A stretch of DNA of 13,969 bases, taken from assembly GCA_038127595.1 (NCBI GenBank), contig JAYPIC010000014.1, positions 23,858-37,826 of the forward strand, read 5' to 3'. The notes below the pieces were generated by a model. That model was not told where the DNA came from. It saw nothing but the letters and a program-made list of their open reading frames with translations, and searched no databases. The first letter of the stretch is position 1; each line of letters opens with the position of its first letter. This DNA is from a bacterium. Its GTDB lineage: Bacteria; Fidelibacterota; Marinisomatia; Marinisomatales; UBA1611. The translations under genes were made by a program, and so were the position numbers. Positions 1 to 12,347 of this stretch are shown one piece after another.

Positions 1-3000
1 TAATTTATTTCCTGTACGATGCCAAAACTCTACATAAGCTTGAACTCCATTCCATATGTAATGAAGCCAACGCATTTGCCATCTGTCTTTTTTATTGCCT
101 GAAATAATTTCAATTTTGTGCCGCTCTAAATAAACATCCACAGTGTCATTCGTAATATATTCCTCGGTGTATATTGATTCCTCTGGCCAGTACCCACCAA
201 ATTTTTCTACTAATTGAGTTTGGCCAGAACTTTTTGAGCCCATTAAAATGAGCCATTTAATTTCATCTTCAAAAAATTCTCTGTCATGATTATGATTAAG
301 GTTCAATATAATGTTATAAGATCCGAAACTGATCGTTTTTACTAAAACACGGAAAGAGCTTTTGTCATTTTTTGTACTAAGGTGCTTTATCCATATCCCA
401 TTTTTTGGAATGTCAGATAATTGTAAAATAGTATCATCGGTAAATAAAAATATTGATTCCTTAATTAAAGCAGTTGAACTAATTGCTTTGATTAATTTGG
501 ATTTATGATTGTCTCTAACATTGTCGTCAAAGGTAATGACTTCTTTCCAGGTATACTCTTCTTTTGTTTCTCTATCGATTGTTAAAGATGTGTTTGGGCC
601 AAGCCACTGCCTAAAACCATTAATTAAATCATAATATTCTTTTTGTGCAGATGATTTAATCTGTGATGGAGATTCTGATAATTGCCACCAAACTAATTCC
701 GCTCTACTTGATACAAATTGGGTTGGATGAATTTTACCATATTCACATATGATTTTTAATGTATTTTGAATGAAATCAAGATCAATAGAATCAATGTCAT
801 CAATATCATTGTGAAGGTCTTGTAATAGTTTTATTAATCTAGAATATTGATTTAAAGTGATTTTATTGACATTAAAATCAAATTGTACTTCATTATTTGT
901 TTCTTTGAAATACCTAAAATCAGATCTTAATCTCTCCACAAAAAGATTTTCCGATAAAATAGGTGCCAATGTTTCCAACAAACTTAACCTAATAGAAGAA
1001 TCTGGATGATTTAAATATTGTATAAAGGTGTTAAGAATTACATCGGACCAATCATTATCTTGCTTTTCCAATATTCTAATAAGGTAATCATTAAAAGAAA
1101 AATCTTTATTTAAATAGAGAGATAAGGCTAAGTGAATGAGTTCTAACTGATATTGGCTATCTTCTAAAGTATGAATATTTTCTTTTTTACTAAATGCGTT
1201 TTCACCAACAACTAAAGATACATGCTGATAATTAATAGCCTCTTTGATTCTGAAGATTGTATTTGAAATAAAATCAACTAGTTCTATGTTACCAAGCCAT
1301 AGTTTTGGATCATTGATAAAAGAGTCTAAATCAAAAATTTTATTTTCAATTATATAGGTAAAGTTTCCAATTACAGCTTTATTATTGTGCCATCTAAAAG
1401 TTAAAAATACATTTTTATCATTTACTTTAATATCATTCCCGTCCCATTTGATATTTGTTTTTATAGTTCCAATTTCACGTATTAACCAATTAGGGAATTT
1501 TATTTCTTTATCATCATTGTATAAACTCAGATAATTTTTTTTATACATTGAAGAAATAGCGGTGCTAAAGTTTTTTATAACATTTTTTCTTTTATAGGTA
1601 CCTTTTTGCGTTAATTCCCCTTTATCCATAGAGAAATCTCTAGCAATTATTGAAAAGTTTACAATGCGCTCATATGGTGATAAAAATCCATTTATGGAAA
1701 TTAACATTGCACTAAAAATTTCATGTATTTGATTGTCGTTCATATTCTCCAAATTATATTCATCATTGCTTCTATTTGGATAAATAAGAACTGTGTTATA
1801 TTCTTTTCCATCGCCTACAAGAAAAACTGATTGAACTAAATCGAAGTCTTGAAAAAGATTTTCTATTTTTTGAGGGGCGATAGTTTGTCCACGACTATTT
1901 TTGTAAATATCTTTCTTTCTATCTACAATAAAATAATATCCATTTTCTTTCTTAAAAATATCTCCGCTATAAAACCAACCATTTTTAAAAGATTCAGAAT
2001 CTTTAATCTTATAAAACCCTGATGAAACATATGGCCCTTTCATGCAAAGCTCGCCATCGTCTTCAATTTTGAGTTCTATGCCTGGTAATGATCTACCAAC
2101 ACTATTTGCAATATACTCTCTTGGTGGTGTCATTGTTATTCCACCTGTTGCTTCGGTCATTCCATATCCGCTTATTAATTCAATTTCATTTTCCTGGAAA
2201 AATAGAAAAATGTCTGGGTCTAAATATCCAGCCGCTGATAGGCCCCATTTTAAATTTCCTCCTGTAATATTTTTTAACTTTTTATTTATCTCTTCTTCTG
2301 ATGATAGGTCTAAATCAATGGAGTCATTAATTGAGTCATATATTTGCACCCACCTTTTTGGAATACTTATAAAAACAGTGGGAGATATGATTGAGAAATC
2401 TTTTAATAAGGAATTAAATGCTGGTGATTCAGCAAAAGTATATGTTGCACCCCAAAAAATTGAACCCATTAATTCAAAATATCTGCCAAATGTATGGAAA
2501 AGAGGTAGGTAGCATAAAAAAATATCAGTACTTCCTATTTCAGGCAACGCAAGTGCTCTAGAAAACCTCTTCGAAATTATATTAAGCTGTGAAAATTTCA
2601 CTCCTTTAGGGTTGCTTGTTGACCCTGAAGTATACATTATAGTATTTGTCCAATTCATATCAATATCTGGCAGATATTTTATTTTGTTTATTGGAGTGTA
2701 ATTATCACTATTATCAAGAAAATCATCCCATGAAATGAAATTACTTTTTACAGTCCCAATTCCGTTAACATCTACAACATACATTTCATAATCTTGTGAA
2801 ATAGAATTCCATAAATGAACAGAATTCTCTCCTCCTAAAAATAATGTATCAACCTTTGATTCTTTTAGAATGTAAGAAAAATGTTCTTTGGTAGAGTTTA
2901 AAGGGATGGGAATTATTCTAATTCCAAAAGATAATGATGCTAGATCCACTAAAGCAGTTTTATACTGGTTATGAGATAGTACCCCAACGACTGGCCTTTT

Positions 3001-3393
3001 ATTTTTAGAAATTTTTTGTAATGCACTCGCGGTTAGCAATATATCGTTCCAGAGTTTCTTGAAACTAATCTCAATCTTATTGTTTCCATCTACAATGTAG
3101 ATTGCAGTTTTATTTTTATACCTATTAAATCTCTGTAGCAATAATTGTCCTGTATGATAATTATATTTTTCAATAATCTCTACAGTTTTCATTGCCCAAA
3201 AGTGGCTGTTATTTTGCGATATAATTTTCGATACAGATGAGAAGTGTAAAAGGTCTAAAAATGAAAAAGCTTCATCTTTTGAGACATCATTATCAATAAC
3301 ATATTTTAGTGTTAATTCTAGTTCATCATAGGCAATTTGGCCCTCATTAACGGAATTTAGTAGGTTGGTAATTTTATGTTTAATTTCAGTCAC
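1..3393 (-). CDS. Large multidomain AMP-binding (ANL superfamily, long-chain acyl-CoA synthetase-like) protein with long C-terminal extension; 3' end runs off the window (>=1131 aa)
   Basis: Manual translation of the minus strand shows no stop from GTG at 3393 to base 1; an in-frame TAA at 3405-3403 bounds the 5' end. ANL motifs: YTSGSTSNPKG (2634-2602), YLPLFH, GYGMTE (2169-2152), GELCMKGP, GWFYSGD (1980-1960), IVDRKKD, GQTIAPQKIE, GELTQKGTYKR (1620-1588). Probably absent from the ORF track because it has no stop in the window. Confidence 0.93.
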   Translation of the reverse strand, partial: MTEIKHKITNLLNSVNEGQIAYDELELTLKYVIDNDVSKDEAFSFLDLLHFSSVSKIISQNNSHFWAMKTVEIIEKYNYHTGQLLLQRFNRYKNKTAIYIVDGNNKIEISFKKLWNDILLTASALQKISKNKRPVVGVLSHNQYKTALVDLASLSFGIRIIPIPLNSTKEHFSYILKESKVDTLFLGGENSVHLWNSISQDYEMYVVDVNGIGTVKSNFISWDDFLDNSDNYTPINKIKYLPDIDMNWTNTIMYTSGSTSNPKGVKFSQLNIISKRFSRALALPEIGSTDIFLCYLPLFHTFGRYFELMGSIFWGATYTFAESPAFNSLLKDFSIISPTVFISIPKRWVQIYDSINDSIDLDLSSEEEINKKLKNITGGNLKWGLSAAGYLDPDIFLFFQENEIELISGYGMTEATGGITMTPPREYIANSVGRSLPGIELKIEDDGELCMKGPYVSSGFYKIKDSESFKNGWFYSGDIFKKENGYYFIVDRKKDIYKNSRGQTIAPQKIENLFQDFDLVQSVFLVGDGKEYNTVLIYPNRSNDEYNLENMNDNQIHEIFSAMLISINGFLSPYERIVNFSIIARDFSMDKGELTQKGTYKRKNVIKNFSTAISSMYKKNYLSLYNDDKEIKFPNWLIREIGTIKTNIKWDGNDIKVNDKNVFLTFRWHNNKAVIGNFTYIIENKIFDLDSFINDPKLWLGNIELVDFISNTIFRIKEAINYQHVSLVVGENAFSKKENIHTLEDSQYQLELIHLALSLYLNKDFSFNDYLIRILEKQDNDWSDVILNTFIQYLNHPDSSIRLSLLETLAPILSENLFVERLRSDFRYFKETNNEVQFDFNVNKITLNQYSRLIKLLQDLHNDIDDIDSIDLDFIQNTLKIICEYGKIHPTQFVSSRAELVWWQLSESPSQIKSSAQKEYYDLINGFRQWLGPNTSLTIDRETKEEYTWKEVITFDDNVRDNHKSKLIKAISSTALIKESIFLFTDDTILQLSDIPKNGIWIKHLSTKNDKSSFRVLVKTISFGSYNIILNLNHNHDREFFEDEIKWLILMGSKSSGQTQLVEKFGGYWPEESIYTEEYITNDTVDVYLERHKIEIISGNKKDRWQMRWLHYIWNGVQAYVEFWHRTGNKL

Positions 3394-3501: not shown

Positions 3502-5106
3502 ATGAGCGATAAACAAAAAATAATAGATCTTGAAAATAGGATTCATAGGCTAAATGAAATTGGAATGGCGCTCTCAACAGAGTCCGACTCAAATAAATTA
3601 TTTGAAATGATTTTAGAAGAGGCTAGAAATATAACCAATGCTGACGGGCGCACATTATATAGTAAGAATGAAACAGGTGATCTTCAGTTTGAAATTCTTA
3701 GGAATGACACTATGAACACCACTATGGGAGGAAGCTCTGGAACTAAGATTCCTTTTGACCCCGTAAAATTATGGGTTGACGAATCAACTCCCAATCAAAG
3801 TAATGTATCAGCTTATGTTGCCTTAACAGGTGAGACTGTTAATATTAAAGATGCTTACGAAGAGGCTGGGTTTGATTTTAGTGGTACAAAGTCTTATGAC
3901 CAAAAAACTGGATACCGTTCACAATCATTTTTAACAGTGCCTTTAAAGAACCATGAAAATGAGATAATTGGTGTAATGCAGTTGATAAATGCCAGAGATA
4001 AAAATGGTAGGGTTGTTTCATTTGATAATGATATGCAAGAACAAATTGAATCCTTAGCGTCTCAAGGTGCTGTCGCCTTGACAAATAAAAAACTGGTTGG
4101 TGAACTGAAAACTTTGTTTGAAGCATTTATTCAGCTAATTGCAACTGCGATTGACAAAAAATCTGAATACACCGGTGGCCATTGTTCAAGAGTCCCTGTA
4201 ATTACCATGATGCTTGCAGATGAGGTTGCAAAAACAAAAACCGGTAAATATAAAGATTTTGCAATGACAGAGGATGATAGATATGAATTATATATTGCAG
4301 CGTGGCTTCACGACTGTGGGAAAGTTGCTACACCGCCGCACGTTGTTGACAAAGGAACTAAGTTGGAGACAATATTTGATAGGATTGAATTGGTTAAAAC
4401 TAGAATGGAAATTCTAAAAAGAGATGCTGAAATAGATTTTTTAAAGAGGAAGTTAAATGGTTCTTTACCTGATTATGACGAAGAATATAGAAATTCAATT
4501 AAGCAAATTGATGAAAATATAAAATTCATTGAATCTTGTAACATTGGTGGTGAGTTTATGAAACCAGAGCTTCAGGAAAGAATAAAATCCATATCTGAAC
4601 AAAAGCTACTATTAAATAATGAGAAGGTAAATATCCTTACTGAAAATGAAGTGCGAAATTTAAATATAACAAAAGGTACTTTACTTCCTGAAGAAAGAGA
4701 TATAATCAATGATCATATATCTATTACCATTGATATGCTTGAACAATTACCATATCCAAAAAATTTAAAAAATATACCAGAATTTGCTGGCGGTCATCAT
4801 GAAAAAATGGATGGTACTGGTTACCCAAAAGGGCTCAAAGCAGATCAAATGTCTCCACAAGCAAAGATTATGGCAATTGCAGATATCTATGAAGCATTAA
4901 CCGCCGCTGACAGACCATATAAAGATGGGAAAAAACTATCTCAAGCAATGAGAATAATGGGCTTTATGAAAAATGACTATCATATTGATGAGGATTTATT
5001 TGAGATTTTTGTTAATTCTGGGGTATATAAACACTATGCCGATGAGCATGTTGCTGCAGGGCAAATAGACGATGTAGATGAAAAGGCTATACTCGGAGTA
5101 AAATGA
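3502..5106 (+). CDS. GAF domain + HD-GYP domain metal-dependent phosphohydrolase (putative cyclic-dinucleotide phosphodiesterase)
   Basis: N-terminal GAF features (NADGRTLY, VALTGETVNIKDAY, D-x-KTGYRSQSFLTVPLKN, IIGVMQLIN). HD-GYP motifs YTGGHCSRV, WLHDCGK, HHEKMDGTGYP, IADIYEALTAADRPYK. Confidence 0.93.
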   Translation: MSDKQKIIDLENRIHRLNEIGMALSTESDSNKLFEMILEEARNITNADGRTLYSKNETGDLQFEILRNDTMNTTMGGSSGTKIPFDPVKLWVDESTPNQSNVSAYVALTGETVNIKDAYEEAGFDFSGTKSYDQKTGYRSQSFLTVPLKNHENEIIGVMQLINARDKNGRVVSFDNDMQEQIESLASQGAVALTNKKLVGELKTLFEAFIQLIATAIDKKSEYTGGHCSRVPVITMMLADEVAKTKTGKYKDFAMTEDDRYELYIAAWLHDCGKVATPPHVVDKGTKLETIFDRIELVKTRMEILKRDAEIDFLKRKLNGSLPDYDEEYRNSIKQIDENIKFIESCNIGGEFMKPELQERIKSISEQKLLLNNEKVNILTENEVRNLNITKGTLLPEERDIINDHISITIDMLEQLPYPKNLKNIPEFAGGHHEKMDGTGYPKGLKADQMSPQAKIMAIADIYEALTAADRPYKDGKKLSQAMRIMGFMKNDYHIDEDLFEIFVNSGVYKHYADEHVAAGQIDDVDEKAILGVK

Positions 5107-5425: not shown

Positions 5426-7219
5426 ATGAATATAGAAATTATTATAGTTCTATTAATATTGTCCTTAGGGTTTTTCCTTTTTATAAAAGAATACTTTAGT
5501 ATAGATGTAACTGCCCTTATTATCCTTTCTAGTTTTTTTGGGCTGGGCTATCTCACGCCTTCTGAGGCAGTATCAGGCTTTTCTAATCCTGCAGTAATAA
5601 CCATCGGTTTGTTATTTATTTTAAGTAGTGCAATTCAAAAGACTGGTCTTTTAGAATATATTGTTGTGACAATAAATAGATTGGTTCATTCCTCAAAAAC
5701 TATTGGATTAGCGGCTTATTACTTTACTATTAGTATAGCATCCTCGCTCATAAATAATACTGCTATAGTAGCTATTTTTATGCCTATTACTATTCGGCTA
5801 GCTCATAATTATCGTGTAAGTCCATCAAAGATGCTAATACCATTAAGCTATGCAGCAATTTTAGGAGGTACGCTGACACTAGTTGGTACGTCAACCAACC
5901 TACTTGTAAATTCCATTTACATGAGTTATGAAGGATCTCAGCCTTTAGGGATGTTTGAATTCTTAAAGTACGGGTCCATCATTTTGGTTATAGGTACTGT
6001 TTATTTATTATTCATTGCTCCAAGATTAATTCCATCAAGAACTACTACTTCAAGTTTAACAAAAAGTTATCATCTAGGTGGTTACTTAACGGAGATGAAA
6101 GTAAGGAAAGGTTCTGTCCTTATTGGAAAATCATGCTTTGATAGATCAATTAATCAAAATTATGATGTTACTGTACTTGATATAATCAGAGAAAAAAAAC
6201 ATATTGTTAAAGATATTAGAAGAACAATTTTAAAAGAGGGAGACATACTTTTTGTAAGAGGCACATTAGAGAACTTCCTTCGGATGAAGGAAGTGGAGGG
6301 AGTTGCATTACTTACTGATGAGAAATTAACACAATCTGAGCTCGAGCAAGAGGATAATGAACTGGTAGAGTGTTTGCTTACAGATGATTCAGGTCTTGTT
6401 GGCAAGAGTTTAATGTCAACAAATTTTCGTCAAATATATGGTGCATTTATTTTAGCAATAAGGCGTGAAGGTGATATTTTTAGAAAAAAAATTGCACATA
6501 TGAAATTGCGTGCTTTTGATACATTATTGGTTTATGGTCCATCAAAAAAAATAGCAAGTTTATCTGATGGAGGAAACTTCATCGTGTTAGGAAAAGTGCA
6601 AGCTAGGTTGATTAAAGAAAAATTTTGGTGGGTTAGTATTTACGTGGTATTAATATCAATTATTTTTGCGGCTATTGGATATATACCAATAATGAAAGGC
6701 GCATTCTTAAGTGTAGTTATACTTCTTAGTTTGAAAATTATTACAGCGCAGGAAAGTTATCAATCTATCCATTGGCAGGTGATCTTTCTAATAGCAGCTC
6801 TGATACCGATAGGTATAGTAATTCAGAAAACAGGTACCGCTGACTGGATAGGAAATAATATTTCAAATTTTATTTTTTTATTTTCTAGTGAACTTCAACC
6901 CTATGTATTGTTAGCTACGATATATTTTATAACAATGATTTTAACAGAGATTTCATCAAACGTTGCTACAGCAATTATAATGGTCCCTATAGCTATAGCA
7001 GTTTCAAACCAACTAGGTTTAGAATCTAGACCGTTCGTTTTTACTGTTGCTTTTGCTGCTAGCTCCTCATTTATAACCCCTATTGGTTATCAAACTAATT
7101 TGATGGTTTACGGTCCAGGAGGGTACAAGTTTAGTGATTACATTCGAGTTGGTTTACCTTTGTCATTAATCCTATTCATATCTGCAATATTGATCATTCC
7201 TAAACTTTGGCACTTTTAG
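5426..7219 (+). CDS. SLC13/DASS-family permease with central TrkA-C (RCK_C) domains (di/tricarboxylate or sulfate-type transporter)
   Basis: Hydrophobic N- and C-terminal halves with GFSNPAVIT, INNTA, LGGTLTLVGTSTN, EISSNVATA and FITPIGYQTNLMVYGPGGYKFSDY. The soluble middle carries two TrkA-C-like units (S-x-L-(I/V)-GKS ... IIR/IRR ... L-x-x-x-D-x-L). Confidence 0.92.
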   Translation: MNIEIIIVLLILSLGFFLFIKEYFSIDVTALIILSSFFGLGYLTPSEAVSGFSNPAVITIGLLFILSSAIQKTGLLEYIVVTINRLVHSSKTIGLAAYYFTISIASSLINNTAIVAIFMPITIRLAHNYRVSPSKMLIPLSYAAILGGTLTLVGTSTNLLVNSIYMSYEGSQPLGMFEFLKYGSIILVIGTVYLLFIAPRLIPSRTTTSSLTKSYHLGGYLTEMKVRKGSVLIGKSCFDRSINQNYDVTVLDIIREKKHIVKDIRRTILKEGDILFVRGTLENFLRMKEVEGVALLTDEKLTQSELEQEDNELVECLLTDDSGLVGKSLMSTNFRQIYGAFILAIRREGDIFRKKIAHMKLRAFDTLLVYGPSKKIASLSDGGNFIVLGKVQARLIKEKFWWVSIYVVLISIIFAAIGYIPIMKGAFLSVVILLSLKIITAQESYQSIHWQVIFLIAALIPIGIVIQKTGTADWIGNNISNFIFLFSSELQPYVLLATIYFITMILTEISSNVATAIIMVPIAIAVSNQLGLESRPFVFTVAFAASSSFITPIGYQTNLMVYGPGGYKFSDYIRVGLPLSLILFISAILIIPKLWHF

Positions 7220-8361: not shown

Positions 8362-9033
8362 TTGGCCCTAAATAAAAAAAACTCATTTATTTTTTGCTTA
8401 TTATTCTTGATTTTTAGTGATTCGATTTATTCTCAATCAATTTCTTTATACCCTAAGAGGAGTAAAAAAATTAAAATATATGATACCTATGATATAAAAA
8501 ATGGAAGTATTATAATCAAAGATAGTAGTTTAATTAAAAAAGTAATTCCTCTAAAATCATTAAGGAAAGTAAAATATTCACAAAAATCTTACAAATCTTA
8601 TGGTGACATTCTCCTTGTTTCAGGTAAGTGGATTTTAAATTGTTCATTGTTCCCTGCTGTCATAGGCTACCCTAATTTATTTTACTCATATGGTTCCGTC
8701 AGTTCAGCTTTAATTTTATCAGGTTCAATTTTAAATCAGATAGGAATGAGACTTGGACGAAATGTTATTACTTATAAGTTAAAAGGACTTAATTACATAA
8801 ATAGAGAATTGATTTTTTCATCGATTTTTTCTGACTTGGACTTATTAAAAAGTAATAGCGACATCAAAGGAGAATATTATTACGAGCCGCACGGAAAAAA
8901 AATTGAATTACCTAAGGCAAATTGGCTTCTAAAATTTTCTGCTAATAATAAACCATTTGGAATAGAGGCTTGGATAAAGAAACATAGACTCAGAGAAAAG
9001 AGATTCTTGCAATTTGCAGTGCCAAAAAAATAG
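8362..9033 (+). CDS. Hypothetical exported/membrane protein (basic, signal-peptide-like N-terminus)
   Basis: TTG start 1 nt after the upstream stop; N-terminus KK + hydrophobic stretch + IYSQ; central mildly hydrophobic segments. No family recognised. Confidence 0.65.
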   Translation: MALNKKNSFIFCLLFLIFSDSIYSQSISLYPKRSKKIKIYDTYDIKNGSIIIKDSSLIKKVIPLKSLRKVKYSQKSYKSYGDILLVSGKWILNCSLFPAVIGYPNLFYSYGSVSSALILSGSILNQIGMRLGRNVITYKLKGLNYINRELIFSSIFSDLDLLKSNSDIKGEYYYEPHGKKIELPKANWLLKFSANNKPFGIEAWIKKHRLREKRFLQFAVPKK

Positions 9034-9753: not shown

Positions 9754-10506
9754 TTGTTAATATTTTCAACAATAAAAAGAATAGCACTTATAGTTTGTAA
9801 TTTTTATTTATTTTCTATGAATATTATAACTGGCCTTGAGACAAAAAATATATCTTATTGTGGTATACCTTTTGAAGTTTTAGGCAATAACTCATCTGAA
9901 ATAAGCTATATTTTGATTCACGGAGATGAAGAAACAGCTAGAATGCTTTTGAAAAACCACATTAAAAAAAATAATGGTAGAGCATTCATTATAAAATCGA
10001 AAAATCGAGAAGTCCCATTTGGGCCAACGATTGTTGACCCTAATAGATTGTTCTCAAATATTGGAGCAAGAAGAGCCCTTAAAAATTTTAAATCAGATTG
10101 GGATAGAGACGAATTAGATAATTTATTAATTGAATTAGAAGAATTACGAGAAAGTTTTTTATTTGATATATTCCCTGATAAAGGAGGTTTATTGATAGCT
10201 TTACATAATAATTTTCGAGGATATAATGTAGAAGATGAATTAAATGATAGCGAATTATATTCAATCAAAAAAGATGAGAATCCTAGAGATTTCATTCTAT
10301 GCACAAACGCTAATGATTATCAAAAGTTAAAAGATGGTCCTTATAATGTTGTACTACAAAATAGAATGAAGAATAATAATAATGGTTCGTTATCTTGGGC
10401 TGCTTTAGAGCATGGAGTCAGGTATATTAATATTGAAACAAGGTTGGGTTGGCTATCTCAACAAAGAAAAATGTTACAATTTGTTGAAAAGAGATTAAAA
10501 AAATAA
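9754..10506 (+). CDS. M14-like zinc carboxypeptidase / succinylglutamate desuccinylase-aspartoacylase fold hydrolase, possibly exported
   Basis: Ordered motifs IHGDE (HxxE), DPNRLF, IALHNN and YINIET. Start uncertain (TTG 9754 or ATG 9817). Confidence 0.7.
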   Translation: MLIFSTIKRIALIVCNFYLFSMNIITGLETKNISYCGIPFEVLGNNSSEISYILIHGDEETARMLLKNHIKKNNGRAFIIKSKNREVPFGPTIVDPNRLFSNIGARRALKNFKSDWDRDELDNLLIELEELRESFLFDIFPDKGGLLIALHNNFRGYNVEDELNDSELYSIKKDENPRDFILCTNANDYQKLKDGPYNVVLQNRMKNNNNGSLSWAALEHGVRYINIETRLGWLSQQRKMLQFVEKRLKK

Positions 10507-10790: not shown

Positions 10791-11132
10791 ATGAGAAATA
10801 TAGACCCTAAAAGTTTATGTATAGGTTTTTTGGGAGCAGCTTTGATTTTTACTTTAACTGGAGCTAAGCAAAAAAAGAACCTTGGAGATATAGTTGTAAA
10901 CTCAATTACTGTGTTAGATGATGGTTATGGTGGTTTTATTACCGCGTATAATCAAGATCAAAAAAGAACTTTATATCTCGGTACCGGTGAGGAAAACAAT
11001 GGATATATACAAACATTTAATAAATTTCAACAGCCTACAGCTTATGTTGGTACTAACAAAGACATGGATGGTATATTAGTTCTCAACGATAGGTATGGAG
11101 AGCTAGGTTGGTCAAGATCTGCAAAACAATAA
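10791..11132 (+). CDS. Small exported hypothetical protein with ~23-aa beta-type repeats
   Basis: AAGGT upstream of the ATG; N-terminal hydrophobic helix; internal repeats GFITAYNQDQKRTLYLGTGEENN / GYIQTFNKFQQPTAYVGTNKDMD / GILVLNDRYGE. Confidence 0.8.
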   Translation: MRNIDPKSLCIGFLGAALIFTLTGAKQKKNLGDIVVNSITVLDDGYGGFITAYNQDQKRTLYLGTGEENNGYIQTFNKFQQPTAYVGTNKDMDGILVLNDRYGELGWSRSAKQ

Positions 11133-11153: not shown

Positions 11154-12347
11154 ATGAAAATTGCTTTTTTAACTGCAGGCGGTATAGCGCCGTGCCTTTC
11201 TTCAAGCATTGGTGCTTTAATTGAGCAATATGCTACATTAAAACCAGAAGCTGAATTGATAGGGTATTTAAATGGCTATAGAGGCCTGCTGCTTGGTAAA
11301 TCTATTAAGTTTCCAGAATCTGCTAAAAATAATTTTTCCGTTTTGTACGAATTTGGTGGCAGTCCCATAGGAAACAGTAGAGTAAAATTAACGAACGTAA
11401 AAGATTGTGTTGAACGCGGCTATGTAAAGGAAGGTGAAGATCCGTTAAAAGTAGCAGCAGAGCAATTGAAGAGAGACAATGTTGATATTCTTCATACAAT
11501 CGGTGGAGATGATACAAATACAATGGCGGCTCAACTTTCAAATTACCTTAAGGAAAATAATTATGACCTTACAGTTGTTGGACTTCCAAAGACTGTTGAT
11601 AATGATGTGTATCCTCTGGTTCAAACCCTTGGTGCTTGGACTGCAGCAGAGCAAGGTGCTATTTTCTTTGAAAATATTGTTAATGAAAATACTACAAGTA
11701 CGAGACAACTTATTATTCACGAAGTTATGGGTCGTAACTGTGGGTATCTTACTGCTCAAACAGCTTTAGAATATAATAACAGGGTTAAAAATAAAGTGTT
11801 TTTTCCCGAGCTATTGATCGATGATAATAAGTGGGGCATAGATGCAATTTACATTCCAGAAATCGATTTTGATTTTCAGGTAGAAGCTGAACGTTTGAAA
11901 AAGGTTATGGATAAAAAAGATTGTGTAAATATTTTTTTAAGTGAGGGGGCTGGATTAGAGGCTATTACTAGAGAAATGGAAAGTAATGGGGAGGAAATTC
12001 CTCGAGATGCATTCGGCCATGTAAAACTAGATGAAATCAATCCAGGACAGTGGTTTGCAAAAAGGTTTTCAAAAGCATTAAACGCTGAAAAAACATTGGT
12101 CCAAAAAAGTGGGTATTTCGCTAGATCAGCTAAATCAAATGATAGAGATCTTCAGCTTATCAAAAACTCTGCCCAATTAGCAGCAAAATGTGCTTTAGAT
12201 CACGAGAGTGGTTTAGTCGGTTTGGATATGGATGAAAATGGTGAACTATTACTCATTGATTTCAATCGTATAAAAGGAGAAAAACCTTTTGACCACAAAG
12301 AAAAATGGTTTGTTGATATTTTAAGATCTATCGGGCAAATTGATTGA
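11154..12347 (+). CDS. pfp: Pyrophosphate--fructose-6-phosphate 1-phosphotransferase (PPi-dependent phosphofructokinase)
   Basis: LTAGGIAPC, GGSPIGNSRVK, IGGDDT (the second Asp is the PPi determinant), PKTVDND, EVMGR, KSGYFARS; GAGGAG ribosome-binding site upstream. Confidence 0.95.
   Translation: MKIAFLTAGGIAPCLSSSIGALIEQYATLKPEAELIGYLNGYRGLLLGKSIKFPESAKNNFSVLYEFGGSPIGNSRVKLTNVKDCVERGYVKEGEDPLKVAAEQLKRDNVDILHTIGGDDTNTMAAQLSNYLKENNYDLTVVGLPKTVDNDVYPLVQTLGAWTAAEQGAIFFENIVNENTTSTRQLIIHEVMGRNCGYLTAQTALEYNNRVKNKVFFPELLIDDNKWGIDAIYIPEIDFDFQVEAERLKKVMDKKDCVNIFLSEGAGLEAITREMESNGEEIPRDAFGHVKLDEINPGQWFAKRFSKALNAEKTLVQKSGYFARSAKSNDRDLQLIKNSAQLAAKCALDHESGLVGLDMDENGELLLIDFNRIKGEKPFDHKEKWFVDILRSIGQID

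Follow-up and report, generated by a model that had tools for sequence, protein, structure and literature searches.

The window analysed here is a stretch of 13,969 nucleotides of contig JAYPIC010000014.1 (C14 below; positions 23,858 to 37,826) from a bacterium of the order Marinisomatales, and its first 420 nucleotides encode, on the minus strand, part of a protein-kinase-like (PKL) domain inside a large fusion protein. We found that the domain is real, has lost the three catalytic residues of kinases, and represents a new family of pseudokinases within a multi-enzyme protein that is uncharacterised. It lies between an adenylation domain of the acyl-CoA-ligase type and a Gcn5-like GNAT domain, where it would serve as a structural, probably allosteric, module.

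The kinase fold of the segment

The peptides on which the initial annotation was based read stop-free and in the same order on nucleotides 1-420 of the minus strand, which are residues 992-1131 of an open reading frame with a GTG start at 3393. The frame runs on in C14 beyond the window and ends with TAA at 22682, giving 1,522 codons in total. An assembly gap of 10 N (C14 23848-23857) lies directly outside base 1 of the window, covers the first half of the catalytic loop, and is two codons shorter than the real sequence, as six residues stand there in the database protein P0001 (98% identical, 1,524 aa) and in L052, a 97% identical gene of a same-genus genome. Both cross the gap in frame without a frameshift. 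Short N gaps within open frames occur elsewhere in the assembly (also L204), and at the loci L151, L193, L196, L140 and L132 the fusion gene is found in two frames, through either frameshift errors or true splits.

In a profile-profile alignment, the family profile matched Ser/Thr kinases at E=0.0011 with 123 columns in register. The HH probability was only 20.7%, but the kinase-like order of elements exceeds chance, because all 18 controls (2 reversed-kinase and 16 unrelated families) were at E>=0.06. The structure predicted for the domain in a close relative had a pLDDT of 94.7, and fold searches with this high-confidence model returned PKL matches only, with Bud32 as the best match and many small-molecule kinases among the neighbours. 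The model contains the five strands of the N-lobe (aa 1000-1008, 1011-1019, 1025-1033, 1065-1069 and 1074-1078; model E76-84, E87-95, E101-109, E141-145 and E150-154) and the alphaC helix (1038-1052; model H114-128). These are followed by alphaD (1085-1097), alphaE (1099-1126), the catalytic loop and the helical base of a C-lobe, and the domain was matched structurally as a whole. Structural alignments to Bud32, RIO and APH begin at model residue 33-40. The model and the fold search show that the segment comprises the N-lobe of a PKL-fold pseudokinase and the beginning of its C-lobe. The initial annotation had read the same order of strands, alphaC, hinge, alphaD and alphaE from the letters, and each of these elements was matched by the model. 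The catalytic loop, which it had expected just outside the window, was indeed found there, with Asn1140 and, in P0001 and L052, Pro1135.

Loss of the kinase active site

Residues were counted in an alignment of 102 rows (40 from the same phylum and 62 others), separately in 106 representatives, and in 208 pooled rows from partly overlapping sets, about 174 of them effective. The beta3 lysine had been described as apparently absent, and Asn1031 stands in its column; Lys was seen within one column in 0/102 loci and 6/208 pooled rows. The Gly-rich loop, described in the same way, has lost both glycines in the window protein but is partly retained in relatives, as Gly occupies the two positions in 24/40 and 26/40 same-phylum rows. 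The alphaC Glu1044 is retained (Glu in 30/40 same-phylum rows, Thr in 50/62 others). The column of the catalytic base, read from P0001 and L052 across the gap, holds Pro1135, and Asp is found there in 28 of the 106 representatives, while Asn1140 of the same loop is retained (91/102 rows). The column of the DFG aspartate, which was set by the sequence register after beta7-beta8 and not by coordinates, holds Ser1156 (Ser in 92/106 representatives and 82/102 rows), and one pooled row of the 208 has Asp within one column. The HxD-x4-N and DFG equivalents have kept the asparagine and lost both aspartates. The FGGYW and EEY motifs fared differently: 90/102 rows have preserved the second Gly of FGGYW, whereas EEY is kept in one subfamily only, and the hinge Glu1078 is present in 38/40 same-phylum rows but is not among the six commonest residues of the 62 others. 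This second group is also without the Gly loop and the alphaC Glu, and a long branch separates it from the same-phylum rows in a quick tree.

None of the three catalytic residues was found within one column in 162 of the 208 pooled rows. Partial retention was limited to the catalytic Asp alone (39 rows), Lys alone (3), Lys with Asp (3) and the DFG Asp alone (1), and no row had all three together. The consulted part of a 2025 review defines a bacterial pseudokinase by the loss of at least one of the beta3 Lys, the HRD Asp and the DFG Asp (PMC12599244), and the domain falls under this definition as all three are lost. Judged by this residue loss, ordinary phosphoryl transfer would be impossible. 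The initial annotation had offered an atypical small-molecule kinase as an alternative; since not only the lysine but also the catalytic aspartate and that of DFG have been lost, this is unlikely. Rare members such as P0154 retain the Gly-rich loop, Lys, Glu, hinge Glu, Asp and Asn in exactly the predicted columns, which anchors the register and shows the graded decay of a real kinase site.

The pooled dN/dS of the pseudokinase was 0.13 (22 pairs), compared with 0.08 for the ligase core and 0.15-0.19 for the linker regions; these values are rough because synonymous sites are near saturation. The substitution pattern shows a domain maintained under purifying selection. Its best-kept residues are structural ones together with Arg1015 (beta2) and Asp1147 (beta7-beta8 loop), both present in 188/208 pooled rows. 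This near-invariant pair is perhaps an inter-lobe clamp that holds the pseudokinase shut.

The ligase and GNAT domains

Conservation is highest in the ligase core, where every Mg/ATP residue is kept. Motifs A3, A4, A5, A7 and A8 were all recognised, with His300, Glu414 and Arg492 in 102/102 rows, Lys263 in 101/102, and Asp478 in 62/62 of the full-length representatives shown. The canonical A10 place, fixed by an alignment to bacterial carboxylate reductase (CAR), whose lysine corresponds to Thr599, and by the ordinary ligases of the genome, holds Ser or Thr in all 102 rows, and the equally invariant Lys597 stands two residues upstream of it. All 374 ligases aligned in PMC6122825 have the canonical lysine. 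The identical swap is shown by fungal CARs, which are active, and the upstream Lys was suggested as a possible substitute (PMC5826065, consulted in part). We infer that the ligase is apparently active. It reached no NCBIfam cut-off (best score 158 against a cut-off of 476, for a long-chain-fatty-acid CoA ligase) and belongs to none of the named subfamilies compared (FadD, MenE, CAR and others). No Pfam match to a carrier (T) domain follows the adenylation domain in the window protein or in 28 relatives (E<=0.01).

On the helix after the P-loop, Lys275, Arg276 and Arg279 form a cationic patch, each in 102/102 rows. The patch coincides with luciferase Arg218, a residue lining the acid pocket (PMC6122825); this placement was taken from the alignment indices of that paper and from alignments with almost no gaps to ligases of solved structure. 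Among solved structures, oxalate- and o-succinylbenzoate-CoA ligases matched the segment best, with weak scores. Together with the Arg218 position, this would suggest an acid that carries a second anionic group.

The C-terminal GNAT domain scored over the Pfam cut-off and, among the sequences of solved structures, was closest to Tetrahymena Gcn5 (E=4e-10), a protein lysine acetyltransferase. The glycine of its CoA loop (motif A) is present in 74/102 rows (19/40 same-phylum and 55/62 others), and an acidic residue two places past the column of the Gcn5 glutamate, which we take to be catalytic in Gcn5, is kept in 91/102. Among 28 long members, the ligase was found in 28 and the GNAT in 27, the exception ending early in the alignment, and the PKL domain was in every full-length member examined. 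The initial annotation had described a fusion of adenylation domain and pseudokinase; both are present, but they are not the whole protein, as the GNAT lies beyond the window. Between ligase and pseudokinase, a HEAT/armadillo-like region matched HEAT clusters of an atlas at 0.88, which is under the evidence level of the atlas, and armadillo-repeat proteins at E=5e-6 with the family profile.

Proposed working of the protein and its alternatives

We consider it about an even chance that the fusion protein is a coupled system, in which the ligase forms a CoA thioester that the GNAT uses for acyl transfer, with the pseudokinase module between them. The ligase would activate a carboxylic acid with ATP and yield its CoA thioester; this acid would probably bear a further anionic group, as in a di- or tricarboxylate. 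The GNAT would hand the acyl group to a protein lysine or another amine, and the scaffold of HEAT region, pseudokinase and helical domain may keep the two sites together and gate or target the transfer. If the ligase feeds the GNAT in this manner, the enzyme would choose and make its own acyl donor. A more specific form of this proposal seems doubtful: a self-supplying sixth type of lysine acyltransferase, activating a di- or tricarboxylate derived from the tricarboxylic acid (TCA) cycle or glutamate and writing a negative acyl mark (succinyl, glutaryl or similar) on enzymes of central metabolism such as citrate synthase, with the dead kinase as the gate where acylation replaced phosphorylation. 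Dedicated writers of charged lysine acylations are, to our knowledge, largely unknown in bacteria.

Gene neighbours bear on the latter proposal. Citrate synthase lies within 8 kb of the fusion gene in 24/27 genomes of two other families. In other phyla, 10/80 loci have a TCA-type gene within two genes, namely citrate synthase (4), fumarase (3), isocitrate dehydrogenase, PrpD or a succinate-dehydrogenase-type Fe-S gene, and 3 further loci are next to a glutamate mutase cluster; several of these loci are kin, and the count has no formal baseline.

Several observations weigh against the coupled system. No citrate synthase was found within 8 kb in the 37 genomes of the window's order, a TCA gene is missing from the nearest two genes at the other 70 of the 80 loci, and 13/50 carriers of other phyla have no full-length eukaryote-type citrate synthase, so that this enzyme is not an obligate partner. 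The CoA-loop glycine is Asn1474 in the window protein, and the column of the Gcn5 glutamate is unconserved (His1460 here). The assignment of Lys275, Arg276 and Arg279 to the pocket comes from alignment position and not from coordinates, and the genome also encodes ordinary ligases of the acetate and long-chain types, whose A10 motifs are canonical. The structural model is of one domain of a 97%-identical relative and not of the window protein itself, and its TM-scores to the query were moderate (0.28-0.47).

The A10 lysine, invariant in other ligases but off its canonical place here, and the Gcn5-like GNAT would also suit a Pat-like sensor, whose ligase mainly senses the acid, acyl-adenylate or acyl-CoA and, via the pseudokinase, switches an acetyl-CoA-using GNAT on metabolic enzymes. 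We regard this as possible but rather improbable, since the ligase core is the best-conserved part with its Mg/ATP residues complete, Lys597 is invariant, and fungal CARs are active with the same swap. It is also unlikely that the joint product of ligase and GNAT is an N-acyl amino acid, polyamine or lipid, with the pseudokinase as a spacer or as an acceptor binder using the old substrate cleft. The small-molecule kinases among the structural neighbours and the long-chain ligase as best NCBIfam match, far under its cut-off, agree with such a product, as does the Gly-rich A5 region, which suits a bulky or long acid (PMC6122825, consulted in part). However, 121 loci showed neither conserved neighbours of a biosynthetic kind nor a carrier protein or exporter, the cationic patch speaks against a plain fatty acid, and the closest solved GNAT acts on protein lysine.

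Retention of a nucleotide site or of atypical chemistry by the PKL domain (ATP/AMP sensing, a Bud32-like ATPase, or SelO/SidJ-like AMPylation or glutamylation) seems still less probable. Bud32 is the best structural match, the Gly loop persists in one subfamily along with the Glu of alphaC and that of the hinge, the catalytic-loop Asn and the Ser at the DFG position are common, and three members retain Lys and Asp; SidJ shows that other chemistry is possible in pseudokinases (PMC12599244, consulted in part). Against this, the cleft has no conserved acidic metal ligand, the 62-row subfamily has neither hinge Glu nor Gly loop, and in the window protein the two glycines of the loop are gone, as are the Lys and both Asp. 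A chance pattern or a decaying relic is very improbable. It would explain the low HH probability, that no solved kinase was hit with the wider profile, and that no kinase model matched any scanned member (Pfam, 40 members at E<=1; NCBIfam, 3 members), but it is contradicted by the fold searches, the dN/dS, and the presence of the domain in all full-length members examined.

Comparison with known systems

Bud32/PRPK and RIO (PDB 4ww5, 4ww7 and 1zp9), which keep the Lys, both Asp and ATP turnover, show 11-15% identity to the domain in structural alignments, and it did not match their families by sequence. Those kinases are separate subunits, found in KEOPS or pre-40S particles, whereas the present domain is part of a ligase-GNAT chain. 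The bifunctional AAC(6')-Ie-APH(2'')-Ia, in which both domains are active antibiotic-modifying enzymes, has the opposite order and no ligase, and we saw no sign of common descent. The scaffold EssB/YukC has likewise lost the three catalytic residues and has a degraded Gly loop (PMC12599244, consulted in part), but unlike EssB/YukC and the glutamylase SidJ, the domain here has no membrane anchor and is set between two enzymes. The words GNAT, acetyltransferase, adenylation, AMP-binding and acyl do not occur in that review.

Salmonella Pat, E. coli PatZ and Streptomyces PatA are also large proteins with an acyl-CoA-synthetase-like domain and a GNAT, C-terminal in type I (PMC8556138, consulted in part). 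The fusion protein would work most like these enzymes but fails their defining feature: the synthetase domain of Type I/II Pat is NDP-forming and inactive, whereas the ligase here has the unrelated AMP-forming ANL fold (PF00501) and is apparently active. In addition, about 780 residues including the pseudokinase separate ligase and GNAT, unlike in Type I/II Pat, and motif A of the Pat GNAT (R/Q-x-x-G-x-G/A) is the loop whose glycine is replaced in the window protein. The protein fits none of the five bacterial GNAT acetyltransferase types in the consulted part of PMC8556138. Fungal CARs (NcCAR, AtCAR) and long-chain acyl-CoA ligases share the PF00501 and PF23562 ligase, and Lys522/Thr524 of NcCAR parallels Lys597/Thr599 (PMC5826065, consulted in part). 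Compared with fungal CARs, no carrier or reductase domain was found here, and the cationic patch and the terminal GNAT are additional. No paper describing the combination of ligase, pseudokinase and GNAT was found in the open-access literature, and the family may represent a protein-acylating machine of a new kind. Its PKL domain constitutes a family of bacterial pseudokinases outside the Pfam and NCBIfam models, with a gradient from near-complete to fully erased active sites.

Family spread and gene neighbourhood

Named close relatives of the fusion protein are Marinimicrobia, and 65/201 genomes of the phylum carry the family, with one match per genome. It forms 275 clusters at 50% identity and occurs at >=582 loci in species-representative genomes, of which 80 were retained. 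These belong to Acidobacteriota, Gemmatimonadota, Krumholzibacteriota, Bacteroidota, Fibrobacterota, Zixiibacteriota, Ignavibacteriota, Calditrichota, Myxococcota, Methylomirabilota, KSB1 and others. The carriers comprise common marine Marinimicrobia and many uncultured phyla. There was no universal operon across the loci. Features are listed in Table 1.

Table 1. Features of the fusion gene and its surroundings (window positions unless stated otherwise)
Feature	Position	Strand	Basis or remark
5' three quarters of fusion gene, ~1,524-aa ligase/HEAT/pseudokinase/helical/GNAT protein	1..3393	-	ORF, Pfam; relatives alike in length and domain order
PKL alphaD and alphaE; catalytic loop next at window edge	16..141	-	Model
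PKL beta4, beta5, hinge	160..201	-	Profile alignment, model
PKL alphaC helix (Glu1044 at 262-264)	238..282	-	Model
PKL beta1, degenerate Gly loop, beta2 (near-invariant Arg1015), beta3 (Asn1031 at 301-303 replaces lysine)	295..396	-	Profile alignment, model, residue counts
Helical extension preceding N-lobe, aa 931-994	412..603	-	Model helices H37-49, H52-61; aligned to N-terminal parts of Bud32/RIO/APH
HEAT/armadillo-like helical region, aa ~746-930 (weak assignment)	604..1158	-	Pfam HEAT E=0.1
Uncovered segment, aa 621-745	1159..1533	-	No Pfam or NCBIfam match
ANL-superfamily adenylation (acyl-CoA-ligase-like) domain, aa 88-619	1537..3132	-	PF00501 E=2.5e-50, PF23562 E=7.5e-13
A10 motif, catalytic lysine two residues upstream (Lys597; Thr599 at canonical place)	1588..1617	-	Conservation, alignment
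Cationic patch Lys275, Arg276, Arg279	2557..2571	-	Each 102/102; luciferase Arg218 position
Remainder of fusion gene (pseudokinase C-lobe, helical domain, GNAT)	C14 22682-23857, outside window		Continued frame
Helical domain	aa ~1251-1390, outside window		
GNAT domain	aa ~1400-1510, outside window		Pfam
GAF and HD-GYP gene, divergent from fusion gene	3502-5106	+	Adjoins fusion gene in 15/41 same-phylum loci
DASS/SLC13-like permease, after HD-GYP gene	5426-7219	+	Adjoins fusion gene in 18/41 same-phylum loci
Three ORFs	8362-9033, 9754-10506, 10791-11132	+	No NCBIfam match
Pyrophosphate-dependent phosphofructokinase	11154-12347	+	NCBIfam 641 against cut-off 395
Cytochrome c oxidase-like cluster, convergent with fusion gene	L001 9591-13537, outside window	+	Named by inspecting translations

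In the window's order, the fusion gene is divergent from the HD-GYP gene and the permease and often convergent on the cytochrome c oxidase cluster; at L001 13561-13588, a hairpin flanked on each side by A and T tracts resembles a terminator shared by the two convergent units. At L032-L051 (families f22 and f27), the fusion gene is flanked by citrate synthase and, on the other side, by a divergent gene that inspection identified as glutamate-dehydrogenase-like. At L182, L185 and L188 (three genomes, two phyla), it adjoins genes for a GntR regulator and a B12-dependent glutamate (methylaspartate) mutase. In the single sequence P0294, part of the pseudokinase is joined to a DnaB C-terminal domain, which is probably a chimeric assembly.
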